A stretch of 64,000 nt of DNA from the NCBI GenBank assembly GCA_031549535.1, contig JAVBPP010000024.1, forward strand, positions 10,180 to 74,179, given 5' to 3'. Made by a program: the position numbers and the translations under genes. The notes beneath the pieces were generated by a model, which worked only from the letters and a program-made list of their open reading frames with translations, ran no database searches and was not told where the DNA came from. Shown here one piece after another: positions 13,379 through 50,815 of this stretch. Positions within the stretch are counted from its first letter, which is position 1. Each line of letters opens with the position of its first letter. The DNA is from Oscillospiraceae bacterium (GTDB lineage Bacteria; Bacillota; Clostridia; Oscillospirales; Acutalibacteraceae).

Positions 13379-13490
13379 TTTCTATGTACTCCTGCATGTA
13401 ATGGTCGCAGGTTTTGCGGGATGAAATGCTTTGCTGTCTGGGATTTTATCCCGCAAAACCCGTGCTACCATTTGATGCAGGAGTAATATC
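13379..13490 (+). repeat. RF-A palindromic intergenic element, copy 1 (~112 bp)
   Basis: About 94% identical to 14512-14622 in direct orientation. Its arms (TACTCCTGCATGTAATGGTCGCAGGTTTTGCGGGAT ... ATCCCGCAAAACCCGTGCTACCATTTGATGCAGGAGTA) form an imperfect stem of about 35 bp. Confidence 0.85.
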
Positions 13491-14497
13491 TATCGTATCT
13501 CTTCGGTTCCTATAATCCAATCCACCATATCCGCGGCGGATTGCGCGGCGCTCATGGGGGTGTAGCCCAGCTCAGCCTTGGCTTTGGCGCAGTCAAAATT
13601 GCTGTTTGCCCGCAGCTTGCGGATGGCGTAGCGTGTAAACAGCGGGGTGGTTTGCGTGATGCGGTAGTAGCGCTCCATAGGCGGCGCTACGGCCTTGGCA
13701 AGGGCGAGGGGCAGCTTCAGCTTCGGCGCTTTACATTTCTCATACCCCGGCAAAGTGGCGCAGTGCGCGGCGAGCGCCTGCATCAACCCGTCCACTGTCA
13801 TGGGCTCGCCCGTAAGCAAATAGCCCTCCCCAGCTCTGCCCTGCTCCGCCGCGGCAAGCATGCCGCGCGCCACATCGCGCACATCCACAAAGTTATAACC
13901 GCCAAACGCAAGAGATACCGGAAATTTGCGCTTTAAAAACATGCGCACCATTTCCCCAACATTGGAAATACGAAAATCGTAAGGCCCAATGCACGCGCTG
14001 GGATAAACGGCAATCGTCTGCAGTTGAGGGCTGTTTGCTTCAAACACATAGCGCGTGGCCTCCGCCTTGGTTTTGGCGTAGACGCCCTCCAGAGCCTCCG
14101 GGTCAAATGTTGTGATTTCCGCCATGGCGGCATCGCCCGCCAGCGGCGGAAACGCGTCCACGGAGGATGCATAAATTAATTTTTTTACGCCGCAGTTCAA
14201 GCAGGCTCTCACCACGTTTTTGGTGCCCTCCAGGTTCACCTGCCGCAGCTGCTCGGCGTTTCCGCTGTTCACCTCAATCATGCCCGCAAGGTGGTAAACC
14301 ACATCCGCGCCCGCAAAGGCCAGCTCCAGCTGCTGTAAATCCGTAATATCGCCATACGCAATGTTGCAGGGAATGCCGTCAAAAATCGGACTTTGCCTGC
14401 GAATCAGGATGCGCGGCACAATGCCCCGCTCCTGCATTTCCTTCAATAACGCGTAGCCGATATGGCCGCTCGCACCTGTGATAACCGCAAGTTGCAT
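13490..14497 (-). CDS. NAD-dependent epimerase/dehydratase family (extended SDR) protein
   Basis: N-terminal ITGASGHIGYAL glycine-rich NAD motif and the YAKTK catalytic Tyr/Lys motif. Confidence 0.85.
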   Translation of the reverse strand: MQLAVITGASGHIGYALLKEMQERGIVPRILIRRQSPIFDGIPCNIAYGDITDLQQLELAFAGADVVYHLAGMIEVNSGNAEQLRQVNLEGTKNVVRACLNCGVKKLIYASSVDAFPPLAGDAAMAEITTFDPEALEGVYAKTKAEATRYVFEANSPQLQTIAVYPSACIGPYDFRISNVGEMVRMFLKRKFPVSLAFGGYNFVDVRDVARGMLAAAEQGRAGEGYLLTGEPMTVDGLMQALAAHCATLPGYEKCKAPKLKLPLALAKAVAPPMERYYRITQTTPLFTRYAIRKLRANSNFDCAKAKAELGYTPMSAAQSAADMVDWIIGTEEIR

Positions 14498-14511
14498 CCT
14501 ATTACTCTCCG

Positions 14512-14622
14512 TTTCTATTACTCCTGCATGTAATGGTCGCAGGTTTTGCAGGATGAAATGCTTTGCTGTATGGGATTTTATCCCGCAAAACCCGTACTAC
14601 CATTTGATGCAGAAGGAATATC
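14512..14622 (+). repeat. RF-A palindromic intergenic element, copy 2
   Basis: Direct repeat of 13379-13490. It overlaps the last ~15 codons of the upstream kinase-like CDS. Confidence 0.85.
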
Positions 14623-42259: not shown

Positions 42260-44245
<1,986 letters not shown>

Positions 44246-44266: not shown

Positions 44267-46825
44267 TTGGCTTTTAACGACGAAACGCTGGACATGCAAA
44301 AAATAATACCCGTGGATATCGACAAGGAGATGAAAAAATCCTTTTTGGATTATTCCATGTCGGTTATCATGGCGCGTGCGCTGCCCGATGTGCGGGACGG
44401 CTTAAAACCCGTTCACCGGCGTATTTTATACACCATGTATGAAAATAATTTGTATCCGGATAAGGCTTACCGCAAGTGCGCGGATACGGTGGGTTCGGTT
44501 TTGGGCCGCTACCACCCGCATGGCGACGCCTCTGTGTATGACGCCATGGTGCGCTTGGCGCAGGATTTTTCCATGCGCTATATGCTTGTGGACGGCCACG
44601 GCAACTTTGGCTCCGTAGACGGTGACCCGCCTGCGGCCTACCGTTACACCGAGTCCCGCATGAGCAAAATTTCGCTGGAGCTGCTGACGGATATCGACAA
44701 GGAGACCGTTGATTTCGCGCCGAACTACGATGACCGCCTGCAGGAGCCGACGGTGCTGCCCTCGCGTTACCCGAATCTGTTAGTGAACGGCTCCTCCGGC
44801 ATCGCCGTGGGTATGGCGACCAATATTCCGCCGCACAACATGAACGAGGTTGTGAACGGCATGTCCTGCCTCATTGATAACCCGGAGGCCTCCTTAGAGG
44901 AGCTGATGGAGCATATCAAGGGGCCCGACTTTCCCACAGCCGGTATTATTATGGGCAAGGCGGGTATCCGCGCGGCCTATGGCACCGGGCGGGGGCGCAT
45001 CACCCTACGCGCACGGGCAGAAATTGTGGAAGAAAAGGGCGACCGCTTTAAAATTATCGTCACGGAGCTGCCCTATCAGGTCAACAAGGCCAAGCTAATT
45101 GAATCGATTGCGGAACTGGTGAAGGAAAAGCGCATAGAGGGCATTGCCGACGTTAACGACTATTCCTCCCGCGAGGGGATGCAAATTGAGGTCAAGCTTA
45201 AGCGCGACGCAAACCCCCAGGTGGTATTAAACCAGCTCTATAGCTTTACCCAGTTGCAAACGACGTTCGGCGTTATCATGCTTGCCCTTGTGAATGGGGA
45301 GCCGAAAATCCTGACGCTTAAGGAGATGCTACAGCATTACATTCAATTCCAGTGCGAAATTGTAACCCGCCGCACGCAGCATGATTTGCGCAAGGCGAAG
45401 GAACGCGCCCATATTTTAGCGGGCTTGCTCATCGCGCTGGATTATATTGATGAAGTGATTGCGATTTTACGCGCGTCCAAATCCATTCCGGAGGGCAAGG
45501 AGGCGCTGATTACGCGCTTTGGCCTGGATGATGTGCAGGCGCAGGCCATTGTACAAATGCGCCTTGGTCAGCTCACGGGCATGGAACGCGAGAAGATAGA
45601 GGAAGAAATGCAGCGCCTGGAAACGCTGATTGCGGACTTGGAGGATATCCTGGGCGACAGCGCACGCGTGCTTGCCATCGTTAAGGAGGAGACCGCCGCC
45701 ATCGGTAAAAAATACCACGATGAGCGCCGCACGGAAATTGTCAATATCACGGGCGAAATGGATATTGAGGATTTGATTCCCGAGGAAACCTGCGTCTTTA
45801 CCCTGACAAACATGGGGTATATCAAACGCATGCCCATGGATACCTATCAGACGCAGCGGCGCGGCGGGCGCGGCATTATCGGCATGAGCCGCCGCGAAGA
45901 GGATGTTGCCCAAACGATGTTTTCCTGCTCCACGCATGAGTATGTGATGTTCTTCACCACGCGCGGCAGGGCGTACCGCCTGAAGGGCTACGAAATCCCC
46001 GAGGGCTCCCGCACAAGCAAGGGTATGAACATTGTGAATCTCCTGCCCATTGAGGCAGATGAAAAGGTCTCCGCGATGATTCGCGTGCCGGCCTATGAGG
46101 GCGGGCAATATCTGTGCATGGTTACGCGCAAGGGCATCATCAAGCGCACGGAGCTGGAACTGTATAAAAACGTCCGGAAAAACGGCGTAATTGCCATTAA
46201 TCTGGACGATGACGACGAGCTGGCCTGGGTGCGCCTGACCAGCGGCGGGGATGAACTGATTGTTGCCACCCGGCGCGGTATGGCCATCCGCTTCGCGGAA
46301 TCCGGCGCGCGCTGCGTGGGCAGAACCGCACGCGGTGTGAAGGCGCTGACACTGCGCCCCGGCGACGAGGTTGTGGGCATGGTGGTTGTGGATGAGGAAA
46401 AAAGCGTCCTCACTTTGAGCGAAACCGGCTACGGCAGGCGCAGCAAGCCCGGCGATTTCCGCTGCCAATCCCGCGGCGGCAAGGGGCTCATCAACTATAA
46501 GACCGCCCTGTACGGCGATGTGGCCGCGGTCTGCGTGGTAGATGAAACAGATGATTTGATTCTGATTTCCTCAGACGGCATTATCATCCGCATACCCGTG
46601 GAGCAAATCAGCACCTTCGCAAGGCCCTCCAAGGGTGTGCGCGTGATGCGCGTGACCCAGGGGGAGCGCCTGGTGACGGTGGTGGCCGCTGAGCATGACG
46701 AAGAGGCGGAGGAGACCGACGCCCTGCCCGAGCAAAGCCCCGAGGATGTGCAGGAGGCCGGAAAGGACGCGGGGGATATCGCGGAGGATGAAGCGGAGGA
46801 AACGGCGGAATCCGTAGAAGAATAG
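44267..46825 (+). CDS. gyrA: DNA gyrase subunit A
   Basis: Canonical motifs [20 protein letters not shown], the QRDR-region [10 protein letters not shown] and the catalytic AAYRYTE. Acidic C-terminal tail. The start is TTG at 44267 or ATG at 44294. Confidence 0.97.
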
Positions 46826-46837
46826 GGCAACAAAACG

Positions 46838-46885
46838 CACGCACAATTCACCTTGAAGAAAGTGAATTGTGCGTGATATTTTTTT
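46838..46885 (+). terminator. rho-independent terminator of gyrA
   Basis: A perfect 14-bp stem (46838-46851 pairs with 46862-46875), then ATATTTTTTT. Confidence 0.8.
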
Positions 46886-46926
46886 CGGGACCGGTATTAT
46901 GACGTGTGATCCGTCGCATTCCAGTT

Positions 46927-47031
46927 TATACCAATTACCTTTTAGAATACTTGCAAAATTCGGTAACGAGCGTTTCATGTATGCGCTCTTGCCGAATTTT
47001 GCAGGAAGTATTCTTAATGGTGATGGTATTA
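46927..47031 (-). repeat. RF-B palindromic MITE-like element, copy 2
   Basis: Its reverse complement is about 95% identical to 22677-22782 (4 substitutions and 1 indel by eye). Confidence 0.85.
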
Positions 47032-47059
47032 GCGCATAATCATAGCCGTTTTCCGGATG

Positions 47060-47094
47060 TAATACCAATATCCAAAGAAAGCGTAGATAAAAAA
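47060..47094 (+). repeat. left copy of a perfect 35-bp inverted repeat
   Basis: TAATACCAATATCCAAAGAAAGCGTAGATAAAAAA is the exact reverse complement of 48415-48449. Confidence 0.9.
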
Positions 47095-47500
47095 TCCGCG
47101 CAAAAGCCATACAGCAAAGCTTTTCCTTGATTTTTTATAACGCTTTCTAATGGCGCTTGGTATAAACTCAAAGTTAAACACTCTTGGCTGTCTGTTCCGA
47201 AGGGGGATTTTCGATAGTCAAGCGTACCCCAAATTTGGATAATCTCTACTCGAGCAAACTCCCTAAATCAAAGGGCGTGCAGCGCAGCGACATAGTCCGC
47301 CGTCAACTTCCCTGCCGGATGCAGCGGCGTGGAAACCCATAGAGGCATATGTTGTTGAAAACGTAATAAAATACCGTTGCCGCCGTTTGTATTCAGTTCC
47401 CAACCCAAATTCTCATTGTTTAGATTTGCCGCAAAATGCATAGTCAAACTGCTTGAGAAGCGACACAGGACTTGCGAAGATATTTTTCATCCTGCAAGGC

Positions 47501-47528
47501 AAAAAACGCAGGAATACTTCTGTATTCC
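47501..47528 (-). terminator. terminator after the lipoprotein gene
   Basis: Stem GGAATAC (47511-47517) pairs with GTATTCC (47522-47528) across a 4-nt loop, followed on the minus strand by TGCGTTTTTT. Confidence 0.45.
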
Positions 47529-47594
47529 GAGGATTTTTAACGCAACAGGGTGGAAAATAGACCGCAGGGATGTGTTGATTTTCAAGTAGTTTGA

Positions 47595-48170
47595 CTATAA
47601 AACACGCGGGGAGGGATAGGCCTTTGGCTCCAGTTGCCAGATTGCGGTATAGCCAGAGCGCATGTCCGGAGAGCCTGTGACTTTCTCTTGCACCAGCACA
47701 ACGTGCAGGTTATAGTCCTCCAGCTCAGCGCTGCCGGTGTAGACGTGAATCTTATTTGAGGTTTTATCGAATACCAGCGTGTCTTTTATGCTGTCCTTTT
47801 CAATATTACTCCGGCACTTAACAGTAGTTAATTTTGCGGGTCGAAATGCTTGGATGTATGGAATTTTGACACGCAAAATTTTTACTACTGTTGGTGCAGG
47901 TGTAATAGCATCCTTGTGGACGACCAGATGCTTGGCGTTGTCCAGCAGCCAGCGGTGCAGGGGAACATCATCTTCCAGCTGAATCCCGAGTTCGTTTGAT
48001 AGCGCATCCACGTCCTTCTGTGGCAATTCAAGGATAAACCAAGGTGTAATCGTGTTTGCCAGAGCGAAATATTGCAGATGTCTTTGTGCGCTGCGTAATG
48101 CCGCGCAGCTTGCCGCGACGAATGCAAGGCAGAGAATTGCGATGAGGCTAAGCAGATACTTGCGTTTCAT
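47595..48170 (-). CDS. putative lipoprotein, function unknown
   Basis: An AAGGAG RBS lies 8 nt upstream. The signal peptide MKRKYLLSLIAILCLAFVAASC has a lipobox-like AASC. The gene is lower in GC than its surroundings. Confidence 0.6.
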   Translation of the reverse strand: MKRKYLLSLIAILCLAFVAASCAALRSAQRHLQYFALANTITPWFILELPQKDVDALSNELGIQLEDDVPLHRWLLDNAKHLVVHKDAITPAPTVVKILRVKIPYIQAFRPAKLTTVKCRSNIEKDSIKDTLVFDKTSNKIHVYTGSAELEDYNLHVVLVQEKVTGSPDMRSGYTAIWQLEPKAYPSPRVL

Positions 48171-48208
48171 GGGCGACGTCTCCTTTTTTCATCATCGTAT
48201 CAGTGTGC

Positions 48209-48385
48209 GTCCGATGACGGTTCCCTGTGGCAAACGGCATCCACCGAGAACGACGGTGCGCCCGGTGTGCGCACCCTACGGCGATATGCCCCGCAAATTC
48301 TGCAGATGCCGTCCGGGCAGCCAATCCTGGCCTCCCTCGCCGAGGGAGGTGTCCCCGCAGGGACGCAGGGAGTCCCCGGGGTGCT
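48209..48385 (+). repeat. RF-C GC-rich mosaic palindromic element (single unit)
   Basis: Contains, in order, the modules CCGATG-N-CGGCATCC, GGTGCGCCCGGTGTGCGCACC (48255-48275), CCTCCCTCGCCGAGGGAGG and GTCCCCGCAGGGAC, as in the arrays at 50.9 kb and 55 kb. Confidence 0.8.
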
Positions 48386-48414
48386 CACTGTGGAAAACGA
48401 GTGGGCGTCCCAAG

Positions 48415-48449
48415 TTTTTTATCTACGCTTTCTTTGGATATTGGTATTA
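48415..48449 (-). repeat. right copy of the perfect 35-bp inverted repeat
   Basis: Exact reverse complement of 47060-47094. It overlaps the last ~10 codons and the stop of the P-type ATPase gene. Confidence 0.9.
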
Positions 48450-50395
48450 GGCTTGGCGTAGCGCCCCAACAGCCGCGAGGCGTTGAGCACCGTTACCAGC
48501 AGCACGCCCACATCGGCGAACACGGCGGCGGAGATTGGCGCAAGGCCGCACAATTCCAGCAGCAGGATGGCACCTTTGACGAGCAGGCAGAAGACGATAT
48601 TGCTGTTGACAATGCGCATGGTGCGGCGGCAGATGATTTGTGCGTCCGCCAGGCGGGCGAGGTTGGAGCCAACCAAAATGATATCCGCCGCTTCGCTTGC
48701 GGCCTGGGTGCCAAGCCCCATGGCAACGCCCGCGTCCGCCGCCGCCAGAACCGGGGCATCGTTGATGCCGTCGCCCACAAAAACAACGCTGCCTTCTTGT
48801 TTCATCTGCTCCACGAAGCGCAGCTTTTCCTCCGGCAGCAGACCGGCACGGTAAGTATCCATCCCCAGTTCCTGCGCTAAGGGAAAAGCCTGGCTTTCGC
48901 TGTCGCCCGTGAGCATCACCAGCTGTTTGGCGGCGCCTTTGCCGCTGCGCAGGCGCTGGAAAAGGCTGTGCACCTGCGGACGCAGCTCGCCCGTAAATGC
49001 GATTGCGCCCAAGGCTTTTCCGTCCGCTGCGAGGTAAACGGCGCTTTCCGGCAGGGCGGAAACATCAATTTGCTGCGCCTGCATGAGGCGCAAGCCGCCG
49101 CAGAGAAGCTGCTGCCCTTGATACACGGCCATTGTGCCGCCGCCGGGCATTTCTGAAAAATTCGAAAGCTGTGCGGGGTCAATTGATGTGCGTGGCAGGC
49201 TTTGCGTTGCGTGGGTGACAATTGCTTTCGCGAGGGGATGTGTGCTGTGTGTTTCACAGGCCGCCGCGAGCAGCAACAGGGTATCCGGGGAAATGCCCGG
49301 TGCGGGGGTCAGCTCGGAAACGCTCATTTCGCCCGTGGTAAGTGTTCCGGTTTTATCAAAAGCAAAGTGCCTTGCCTTGGCCAGATTTTCTAAAAAGATG
49401 CCGCCTTTGATGATAATGCCCTGCTTGGCCGCTGCGCCCATTCCGGCAAAAAAACTCAAGGGAACGCTCAACACCAGCGCACAGGGGCAGCTCGCCACCA
49501 AAAAACCCAGCGCACGCCGCAGCCATTCCTGCCAATCTCCTGTAATCAGGGAGGGAATCACGAATAGCAACACCGCCAAAACCACAACGGTGGGTGTGTA
49601 CACTCGCGCAAAGCGAGTAATTTTTTTATGGGCGCTGCCCTTGCGCTCCACGGCGTCCTCCACCATGCGAATGATACGCGCGGCGGCGGAGTCTGTTACG
49701 GTGGAACTCACCCGCACCACAAGTGTGCCGTCCGCGTTCATCATTCCGCTGGAAACACGTTCGCCGGGCACAGCCCCCACGGGTAGGGATTCGCCTGTCA
49801 GCGCGGCGGCGTCCAGACTGGAGCTGCCGCGCAGGATAACGCCGTCCAGCGGGACACGCTCATGCGGAAGAATGACAATTTCACTTGCGACGGCAATTTC
49901 CGCCGCCGCAACGGTTTGCATCTTGCCGTCCGCCAAGAGAAGATGTGCGGTGTCCGGCTGGAGGTCGGAGAGGGAGCGTATCATATTGCGGCTGCGCCGG
50001 GAGGCATAGTCTTCAAACGCCTCCCCAATGCGGAAAAACAGCGTTACCGCCGCGCCCTCCGCAAACTCGCCCATGCCGAAGGCCGCAAGGGAGGCGATGG
50101 ACATCAGCAGCGTTTCATCCATCTCCCCGTGGCGCAGAGTTTTGTAGCCTTGTATCACAACAGGGTAGCCGGAAATCAAGGCCGAAAGGGCAAATAGAAT
50201 TGCCTTCGGCCAGCCCTCTATCATGGGCAGGAACGCAAGCGCGAGCAGCAGCGCGGAAATACCCATCTCCCAAAGGCCGCGCGCTGTCCCTTTTTCCGCA
50301 TCGGCATGCGCATGTTTATGGCCGCAGCCGCAAAGGGACTCCGGCTGGGCTTGCACCCCGCAGTTGCAGTTTTTTTCGTTATAACACTCTGACAT
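48419..50395 (-). CDS. heavy-metal translocating P1B-type ATPase (Zn/Cd/Co-type)
   Basis: CPC transmembrane motif (ASCPCALV), DKTGTLT phosphorylation site, GDGINDAP hinge and a Cys/His-rich N-terminus. Confidence 0.92.
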   Translation of the reverse strand: MSECYNEKNCNCGVQAQPESLCGCGHKHAHADAEKGTARGLWEMGISALLLALAFLPMIEGWPKAILFALSALISGYPVVIQGYKTLRHGEMDETLLMSIASLAAFGMGEFAEGAAVTLFFRIGEAFEDYASRRSRNMIRSLSDLQPDTAHLLLADGKMQTVAAAEIAVASEIVILPHERVPLDGVILRGSSSLDAAALTGESLPVGAVPGERVSSGMMNADGTLVVRVSSTVTDSAAARIIRMVEDAVERKGSAHKKITRFARVYTPTVVVLAVLLFVIPSLITGDWQEWLRRALGFLVASCPCALVLSVPLSFFAGMGAAAKQGIIIKGGIFLENLAKARHFAFDKTGTLTTGEMSVSELTPAPGISPDTLLLLAAACETHSTHPLAKAIVTHATQSLPRTSIDPAQLSNFSEMPGGGTMAVYQGQQLLCGGLRLMQAQQIDVSALPESAVYLAADGKALGAIAFTGELRPQVHSLFQRLRSGKGAAKQLVMLTGDSESQAFPLAQELGMDTYRAGLLPEEKLRFVEQMKQEGSVVFVGDGINDAPVLAAADAGVAMGLGTQAASEAADIILVGSNLARLADAQIICRRTMRIVNSNIVFCLLVKGAILLLELCGLAPISAAVFADVGVLLVTVLNASRLLGRYAKPNTNIQRKRR

Positions 50396-50404
50396 GACAA
50401 TTCC

Positions 50405-50815
50405 TCACTTCTTTACGCCAATTTCGCGCAGGTGGGATAGGCCGGTTTCAATAATTTCTTTGACGTGGTCGTCGTCCAGCGCGTAAAAAATTGTTTTGCC
50501 GCTGCGGGTCGGGCGCACAAGACCGCTCGTGCGTAGAATACGCAGTTGGTGCGAGACCGCGCTTTGCCCCATTTCCAGCTGCTGTGCAATATGCTGCACG
50601 CACATTTCCCCCTGCATCAAGGCGGTTAAAATGCGGATACGCGTAGAATCTCCAAACACCTTAAACAGTTCGGAAAGGTCATACAGGGTTTCAATGTCGG
50701 GCTGTTCAGCCGCGTGGAGCAGGCAACAATCCTCCGCCGTACAAGGGGGTTGGGTATGCTTATGTTCTTCCATAGGTATCACATCCGACGCATAATCATA
50801 TGAGCAATTGTTCAT
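50405..50815 (-). CDS. ArsR/SmtB family metalloregulatory repressor
   Basis: Winged-helix core FKVFGDSTRIRILTAL ... CVQHIAQQLEMGQSAVSHQLRIL with N-terminal Cys residues. Lies directly upstream of the ATPase. Confidence 0.9.
   Translation of the reverse strand: MNNCSYDYASDVIPMEEHKHTQPPCTAEDCCLLHAAEQPDIETLYDLSELFKVFGDSTRIRILTALMQGEMCVQHIAQQLEMGQSAVSHQLRILRTSGLVRPTRSGKTIFYALDDDHVKEIIETGLSHLREIGVKK

Follow-up and report, generated by a model that had tools for sequence, protein, structure and literature searches.

A 3-bp TWA target duplication is a hallmark of the Tourist type of MITEs (miniature transposable elements with inverted repeats) and of the PIF/Harbinger-IS5 superfamily, and 3-bp TNA duplications are assigned to subgroups of IS5. 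In bacteria, the Correia elements of Neisseria, ERIC, RUP and the QMITEs of Coxiella are palindromic repeats of ~100-150 bp, which are mostly intergenic and are often found just after stop codons. Invertons of the Hin, Gin and Fim types consist of a short segment flanked by inverted repeats of ~15-35 bp. In-frame fusions of bacterial MITEs to open reading frames (ORFs) have been described in a review (PMC10969869). Here, we analyzed the spacer between gyrA and a heavy-metal P-type ATPase gene of an Oscillospiraceae bacterium. It lies within a stretch of 64,000 nucleotides (the window), which corresponds to positions 10180-74179 of contig C81 of the organism's own assembly (2.56 Mb, 125 contigs, 3.3% contamination), and all genome-wide counts refer to this assembly. 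The spacer contains a perfect 35-nt inverted repeat, and a preliminary description had treated the enclosed 1.39-kb segment as a possible transposable or invertible unit. Our analysis indicates that a dispersed MITE, named RFD, probably inserted twice and independently, that each arm is the identical end of one of these copies, and that the arms do not delimit a unit.

The RFD and RF-B repeat families

Both repeat finding and a DNA search bore out that positions 47060-47094 of the window (TAATACCAATATCCAAAGAAAGCGTAGATAAAAAA) are the exact reverse complement of positions 48415-48449, with 100% identity over 35 nt and 1320 nt between the arms. Within the window, a search for the 35-mer that allowed up to three mismatches returned these two sites only, and none of 100 shuffles matched. 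Genome-wide, the 35-mer was found elsewhere too, with 12 exact copies on 11 contigs. The left arm turned out to be the first 35 nt of a palindromic unit of ~106 bp (47060-47165) that recurs throughout the genome, and it is this unit that was named RFD. A consensus-based count yielded 73 RFD loci, of which 18 are near full length, while many are internally deleted. About ten loci consist of a left arm only (solo left arms), broken off at element positions 22-48. The right arm (48415-48449) is one of these solo left arms and is sharply cut at 35 nt. A hidden, degenerate remainder of the right copy was considered and rejected, because only 32 of 71 positions beyond the 35 nt matched, compared with a shuffle mean of 32.6. 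Many contigs of the assembly end in RFD-type repeats.

RFD has its ends in common with a second dispersed repeat, RF-B, for which 56 loci were counted in the genome, including 42 of nearly full length. An alignment of the near-full copies revealed common termini (TACCAAT...ATTGGTA) and different interiors in the two families, and the terminal inverted repeats of both read T(A/T)ATACCAAT...ATTGGTAT(A/T)A. The 3-nt flanks were equal on both sides in 28 of 34 RF-B copies (TTA/TTA in 23, TAA/TAA in four and TGA/TGA in one case; shuffle maximum 27) and in 10 of 13 RFD copies (TAA/TAA in eight and TTA/TTA in two cases; P = 0.04). Thus, RFD and RF-B duplicate a 3-bp TNA target, which is mostly TAA or TTA. 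The earlier impression that the termini of the arms resemble the ends of RF-B was therefore correct, as both the termini and the 3-bp TNA duplication are common to the two families.

The consensus sequences have lengths of 106 bp (RFD) and 107 bp (RF-B) and are too short to encode a transposase. Folded as DNA hairpins, RFD and RF-B have energies of -23.9 kcal/mol (z = -6.7) and -29.9 kcal/mol (z = -9.4), respectively. Long hairpins are formed by all three MITEs at this locus, RFD, RF-B and the RFE element treated below, with z-scores from -6.7 to -9.4. Because RFD and RF-B are small, have terminal inverted repeats, duplicate their target, occur in high copy number and lack coding capacity, they were classified as MITEs. 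Every MITE property that was tested was found in both families, with the exception of a demonstrated parent insertion sequence (IS).

The TACCAAT termini and the co-varying 3-bp TNA duplication are the basis for assigning the two families to a Tourist/IS5-like type. With the Tourist MITEs and the PIF/Harbinger-IS5 superfamily they have in common a length of ~106 bp, the lack of coding sequence, terminal inverted repeats, a hairpin, dozens of copies and a co-varying T(A/T/G)A duplication of 3 bp. Unlike these, however, the RFD host is a Clostridia-type bacterium and not a plant, and its assembly contains no IS5- or Harbinger-type transposase with matching ends.

RFD-like elements with 75-86% identity were detected in this bacterial family outside the genus, namely in four other genera, which argues that the RFD superfamily is older than this genus. 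These RFD-like copies of ~105 bp, found at loci L058-L062 in the four genomes G010, G013, G044 and G051, have the termini TAATAC(C/G/T)AAT, and their centre is a conserved core, AAAAGCCATA...AAGCTTTTCCTTGATTTTT.

RFD-encoded gene ends

The ATPase ORF (48419..50395, minus strand) ends in GRYAKPNTNIQRKRR followed by the stop codon, and the tail and the stop lie within the right arm, so that the right copy does form the last ~10 codons and the stop of this gene, as had been described. Translated in one of its frames, the RFD left arm yields NTNIQRKRR and a stop codon, and this frame is present in 22 RFD arms genome-wide. A further ORF of 505 aa (C104:2500-4017) also ends in an RFD arm in the same frame (...YYTNIQRKRS), and an open frame of 135 aa on contig C91 ends in ...NTNIQRKRR. 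The other frame of the arm is used by the ORFs C121:26748-27446 and C62:116-760, which end in ...YPNKA and ...YPKKA, respectively. Judged from these predicted ORFs, C-terminal remodelling by RFD is recurrent.

An alignment of ATPase homologues showed conservation up to ...NASRLLGRY, after which short, unrelated basic tails follow. Because at least one other gene has an RFD-encoded tail (...TNIQRKRS), the end of the ATPase gene is best derived from RFD: as far as the sequences tell, it is the dispersed repeat that supplied the last ATPase codons and the stop, and not the reverse. The proposal that the left copy arose from the end of the ATPase gene by duplication and displacement had to be abandoned, given 73 RFD loci and a repeat-encoded tail in other genes. 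The ArsR/SmtB-type regulator gene upstream of the ATPase gene has a counterpart in the two closest relatives, where the same HTH_5/HTH_20 gene precedes the ATPase gene.

In at least ten loci, a long ORF has as its stop codon the TAA that flanks an RFD or RF-B copy, with a 3-nt overlap; examples are C89:3211-3316, C125:5647-5752, C82:38798-38901, C120:35161-35267 and C103:1-87. One RFD-like copy in another genus (L058) likewise abuts a TAA after an open frame. RFD and RF-B thus appear to sit preferentially, even habitually, right at predicted gene ends. The palindromic structure at a similar length, the mostly intergenic location, the landing at gene ends, the new C-terminal residues and stops, and the clustering in spacers are features that they have in common with Correia, ERIC, RUP and the QMITEs. 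However, there is no sequence relationship to these elements, and the target duplication of Correia, RUP and ERIC is TA, compared with 3 bp in the case of RFD and RF-B.

The segment between the two arms

The spacer between gyrA and the ATPase gene is a mosaic built of dispersed repeats. It contains, together with its neighbouring genes, the following features (coordinates of the window, strand, description):

44267..46825, plus: gyrA, 852 aa, left neighbour, from the ORF list, after gyrB (42281-44245)
46838..46875, no strand: hairpin terminator after gyrA, 17-bp stem, T-rich runs on both strands
46926..47031, plus: RF-B MITE, complete, flanks TTA/TTA (46926-28 and 47029-31), one of 56 loci
47032..47059, no strand: spacer of 28 nt from RF-B to RFD
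47060..47165, plus: RFD MITE, complete, 106 bp, flanks TAA/TAA, first 35 nt are the left arm, one of 73 loci
47166..47493, no strand: non-coding single-copy spacer, no other copy in the genome, codon score below 0 in six frames
47494..47565, no strand: dispersed repeat of ~70 bp, ~8 loci, downstream of the lipoprotein ORF, contains a bidirectional terminator hairpin (47511-47528)
47595..48170, minus: lipoprotein-like orphan ORF, 191 aa, MKRK signal peptide, AASC lipobox, AAGGAG ribosome binding site
47804..47907, plus: RFE MITE inside the lipoprotein ORF (residues ~90-123), apparently IS630-derived, TA-flanked, 71 loci (cross-hitting RF-A)
~48203-48395, no strand: one RF-C unit, GC-rich stacked palindromes, many copies in the genome
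48415..48449, minus: RFD solo left arm of 35 nt, the right arm, provides the ATPase codons NTNIQRKRR and the stop
48419..50395, minus: heavy-metal P1B-type ATPase, 658 aa, CPC and DKTGT motifs, Pfam E1-E2_ATPase and Hydrolase
50405..50815, minus: ArsR/SmtB-type regulator, upstream of the ATPase gene in the same operon, from the ORF list

The terminator and the single RF-C unit that had been placed between the arms were both recovered, as was the RF-B copy outside the left repeat, 28 nt to the left of the arm. A search for a coding remnant in 47166-47493 was negative in all six frames. A further inverted repeat of 28 nt with 86% identity (ATAGTCAAACT...AGTTTGACTAT, 47440-47598) brackets the ~70-bp terminator repeat and overlaps the stop codon of the lipoprotein ORF; it may be a further small element.

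The left RFD copy is complete, with a TAA/TAA target duplication of its own; therefore, 47032-47059 and the sequence from 47166 onward were contiguous before its insertion. A direct target duplication around the whole 47060-48449 block was not found, in agreement with the initial observation, as the outer flanks are TAA (47060-62) on one side and TTA (48447-49) on the other side. The unique interior parts have no second copy in the genome. Neighbouring copies within 3 kb of each other form six pairs in the case of RFD (four of them inverted), eight in the case of RFE and two in the case of RF-B, and the six RFD pairs compare with ~6 expected for 73 random loci in 2.56 Mb. The absence of a recombinase, originally noted for the window, extends to the whole of contig C81, on which neither a serine nor a tyrosine recombinase was found; PF00239 occurs only on C9 and C96, and PF00589 only on C70. 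The complete left copy, the unmatched outer flanks, the single-copy interior and the chance-level pairing all argue against the 1.39-kb segment being one element. We found no support for the segment moving or inverting as a unit, and it probably does neither.

The course of events would then be as follows. RFD and RF-B would have been moved in trans by a transposase, presumably of the DDE type, that is missing from the assembly. One RFD copy (47060-47165) would have entered a TAA in the gyrA-side spacer and remained intact. A second copy would have entered, in opposite orientation, a TAA inside the last codons of the ATPase gene, where the insertion point reads AAG CC/TAA/T ACC. Thereby, it would have exchanged a native short basic tail for PNTNIQRKRR and a stop, and it would later have been reduced to its first 35 nt. 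The intervening 1.3 kb would be resident DNA that gathered other repeats and now comprises the spacer, the terminator repeat, the orphan lipoprotein gene and RF-C.

Several observations weigh against two separate insertions, and they are considered here together with the alternatives to which they lend weight. One is that a cognate transposase for RFD and RF-B was not found, as PF01609, PF13359 and PF13586 are absent from the assembly. This absence is a weak argument, since the assembly is fragmented into 125 contigs and insertion sequences, including the parent IS, may be missing from it. Pairs of RFD/RF-B termini 0.1-5 kb apart enclosed only ordinary genes and no transposase, multi-copy ORF families were not present in the assembly, and IS5-type genes in four related genera had no TACCAAT ends nearby.

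Moreover, the outer ends of the block are identical, bona fide RFD left termini in inverted orientation, which a transposase could in principle use. In addition, when 47063-48449 was removed in silico, the ATPase frame ran through the 28-nt spacer and stopped exactly at the RF-B-flanking TAA, ending in AKPYIRKTAMIMR. This is what insertion of the whole block would predict, and a flanking TAA is the stop codon of a gene at at least five other RF-B loci. The closure may point to a former end of the ATPase gene. The chance of an in-frame closure can, however, be estimated at ~0.19 (the product of one third, for the frame, and ~0.56, for the lack of an earlier stop). The restored frame hints at a functional MITE-bounded cassette, in which a pair of RFD ends would have picked up a native lipoprotein gene and brought it into the ATPase 3' end, or would still flip it there; we regard such a cassette as very unlikely. 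Similarly improbable is a composite transposon, i.e. a movement of the whole 47060-48449 block into a TNA site at the ATPase 3' end via the outer RFD termini. Its outer flanks would be unmatched (TAA/TTA), while the complete left copy has matching TAA/TAA flanks. Furthermore, no transposase was found, the genome contains no second copy of the cargo, the lipoprotein has no homologue beyond three weak partial matches, and the cargo has a host-like codon usage and carries host repeats.

The outer flanks also bear on a past inversion, because TAA and TTA are reverse complements. The arrangement TAA-RFD-TAA ... RFD-TTA is the pattern that would be expected after a flip between a TAA-flanked and a TTA-flanked copy. 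The segment between the inverted RFD copies could therefore have been flipped, or could rarely still flip, by RecA-type homologous recombination and with no dedicated switch. The arms are 100% identical over 35 nt, the right copy was probably of full length (106 nt) earlier, and in the flipped state the ATPase frame would remain open for 18 codons and end in AKPKLKVKHSWLSVPKGDFR. On the other hand, a length of 35 nt hardly exceeds the minimum for efficient RecA recombination, a single orientation is seen in the assembly, the flank pattern can be explained just as well without an inversion, and contig C81 encodes no invertase. The ATPase and lipoprotein coding sequences would be unchanged, as the ATPase stop is part of the repeat, and a selectable switch is thus not evident. 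Taken together, an inversion appears unlikely. The locus resembles invertons in the length of the inverted repeats and the short segment that they flank. Unlike in invertons, however, the repeat is not locus-specific but the end of a dispersed transposon, present in 12 exact copies, a recombinase is not adjacent, and a flip would change neither a coding sequence nor an obvious promoter-gene relation.

A close relative that could show an empty site or the second orientation was not found in the collections searched. The ATPase was searched in 40 relatives, in genome and metagenome contigs and in 5.8e9 proteins, and the nearest homologue was 63% identical, had different neighbours and was not located beside gyrA. 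Exact look-up did not retrieve the ArsR or GyrA sequence in identical form from another strain.

It was also considered whether the contig had been mis-joined at a near-identical RFD copy, so that the inverted arrangement or the solo arm would not be real. The assembly consists of 125 contigs with 3.3% contamination, many contig ends lie in these repeats, and the 35-mer occurs in 12 identical copies. However, a mis-join within a repeat would yield a complete chimeric copy, and not 35 nt followed by unique sequence. In addition, ~10 other solo arms have different breakpoints, and the ATPase frame reads cleanly into the arm. We consider an assembly artefact the most improbable of these explanations.

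The lipoprotein ORF and the RF-A/RFE elements

The lipoprotein gene proposed for 47595..48170 (minus strand) was confirmed as an ORF with an AAGGAG-type ribosome binding site and an AASC lipobox. Homologues were sought in two ways. A word-indexed search of 5.8e9 proteins retrieved only the protein itself. In a full HMMER search of 1.8e9 representatives, the only full-length match was again the protein itself, accompanied by three weak partial matches (E-values from 2e-6 to 6e-4), one of which is probably a translated repeat. Neither search yielded a homologue without the RFE insert. The protein belongs to no Pfam family, and a single-sequence AlphaFold model had a pLDDT of 42 and was uninformative.

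Codon usage was evaluated using a log-odds model that was trained on 765 long ORFs and yields scores of 0.22 +- 0.10 for genes and -0.39 for shadow frames. The codon scores and the GC contents at third codon positions (GC3) of the three parts of the ORF were:

Residues 1-87: codon score 0.17, GC3 0.59
Residues 88-123 (RFE MITE): codon score -0.23, GC3 0.22
Residues 124-191: codon score 0.32, GC3 0.63

The genome-wide mean GC3 of genes is 0.63. The GC content of the gene is indeed lowered, as had been stated, but this is mostly due to the embedded 104-bp MITE. Because the codon usage of these flanking parts is host-like, the ORF looks like a real host gene, albeit an orphan.

With the TA duplication counted, the net insert of RFE is 102 nt, equivalent to 34 codons, and is in frame. 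Five codons into the element, a 1-nt deletion (TTT>TT) is found in this copy only, among 27 aligned near-full copies. The reading frame through RFE is open because of this deletion; without it, stops would occur inside the element. In a genome-wide codon-score screen, no other locus had an embedded MITE with coding-type scores on both sides. An Rfam search with the RFE hairpin (47805-47906) returned only sub-threshold plant miRNA precursors (MIR2606 and MIR6297), and these look-alikes are a shape artefact of MITE hairpins. The arrangement resembles the Rickettsia palindromic elements in that RFE (47804-47907) lies within an ORF of coding-like character and lengthens it by 34 residues with the frame intact. 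In contrast to these, RFE is a MITE of the IS630 type, a parent-like IS of which resides in the genome, and the frame is kept only by the 1-nt deletion. Dozens of in-frame palindromic insertions are known from Rickettsia, and such insertions also occur in other bacteria (PMC10969869), compared with one case in this genome.

RFE and RF-A have common termini (TATTACTCC.GCA) and TA flanks. An IS630-family element of ~1.1 kb with the termini TATTACTTCTGCACTAAAAGGTCGCACG is located at C42:21928-23041 (also at C66:28-1260) and encodes a DDE_3 transposase of 347 aa. Between its terminal repeat and the RF-A terminus, 22 of 28 nt agree, and the element at C42:21928-23041 is likely the parent of the RF-A/RFE MITEs, as judged from this similarity. 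A full-length IS with the same termini was thus found for RFE/RF-A, but not for RFD/RF-B. Elsewhere in the window, RF-A copies bracket an SDR gene (13379-14622); these are members of RF-A/RFE with the same likely parent.

With two separate RFD insertions as the probable origin of the arms, an apparently novel mobile or invertible cassette becomes ordinary MITE litter. If the cassette reading were true after all, it would mean that genes can be mobilised by pairs of Tourist-like MITEs in gut Clostridia. For annotation, the repeats are relevant as a source of spurious ORF extensions and of false 'unique' inverted repeats, and pipelines for inverton calling would flag such MITE pairs. The analysis provides a usable account of the repeat system in an uncultured Clostridia-type genome, with two MITE superfamilies, RF-B/RFD, which has a 3-bp TNA duplication and for which a parent was not found, and RF-A/RFE, which is likely IS630-derived. 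The MITEs of this genome appear to land at or near stop codons, to rewrite C-terminal tails and to break assemblies, and one of them lies in frame inside a predicted gene.

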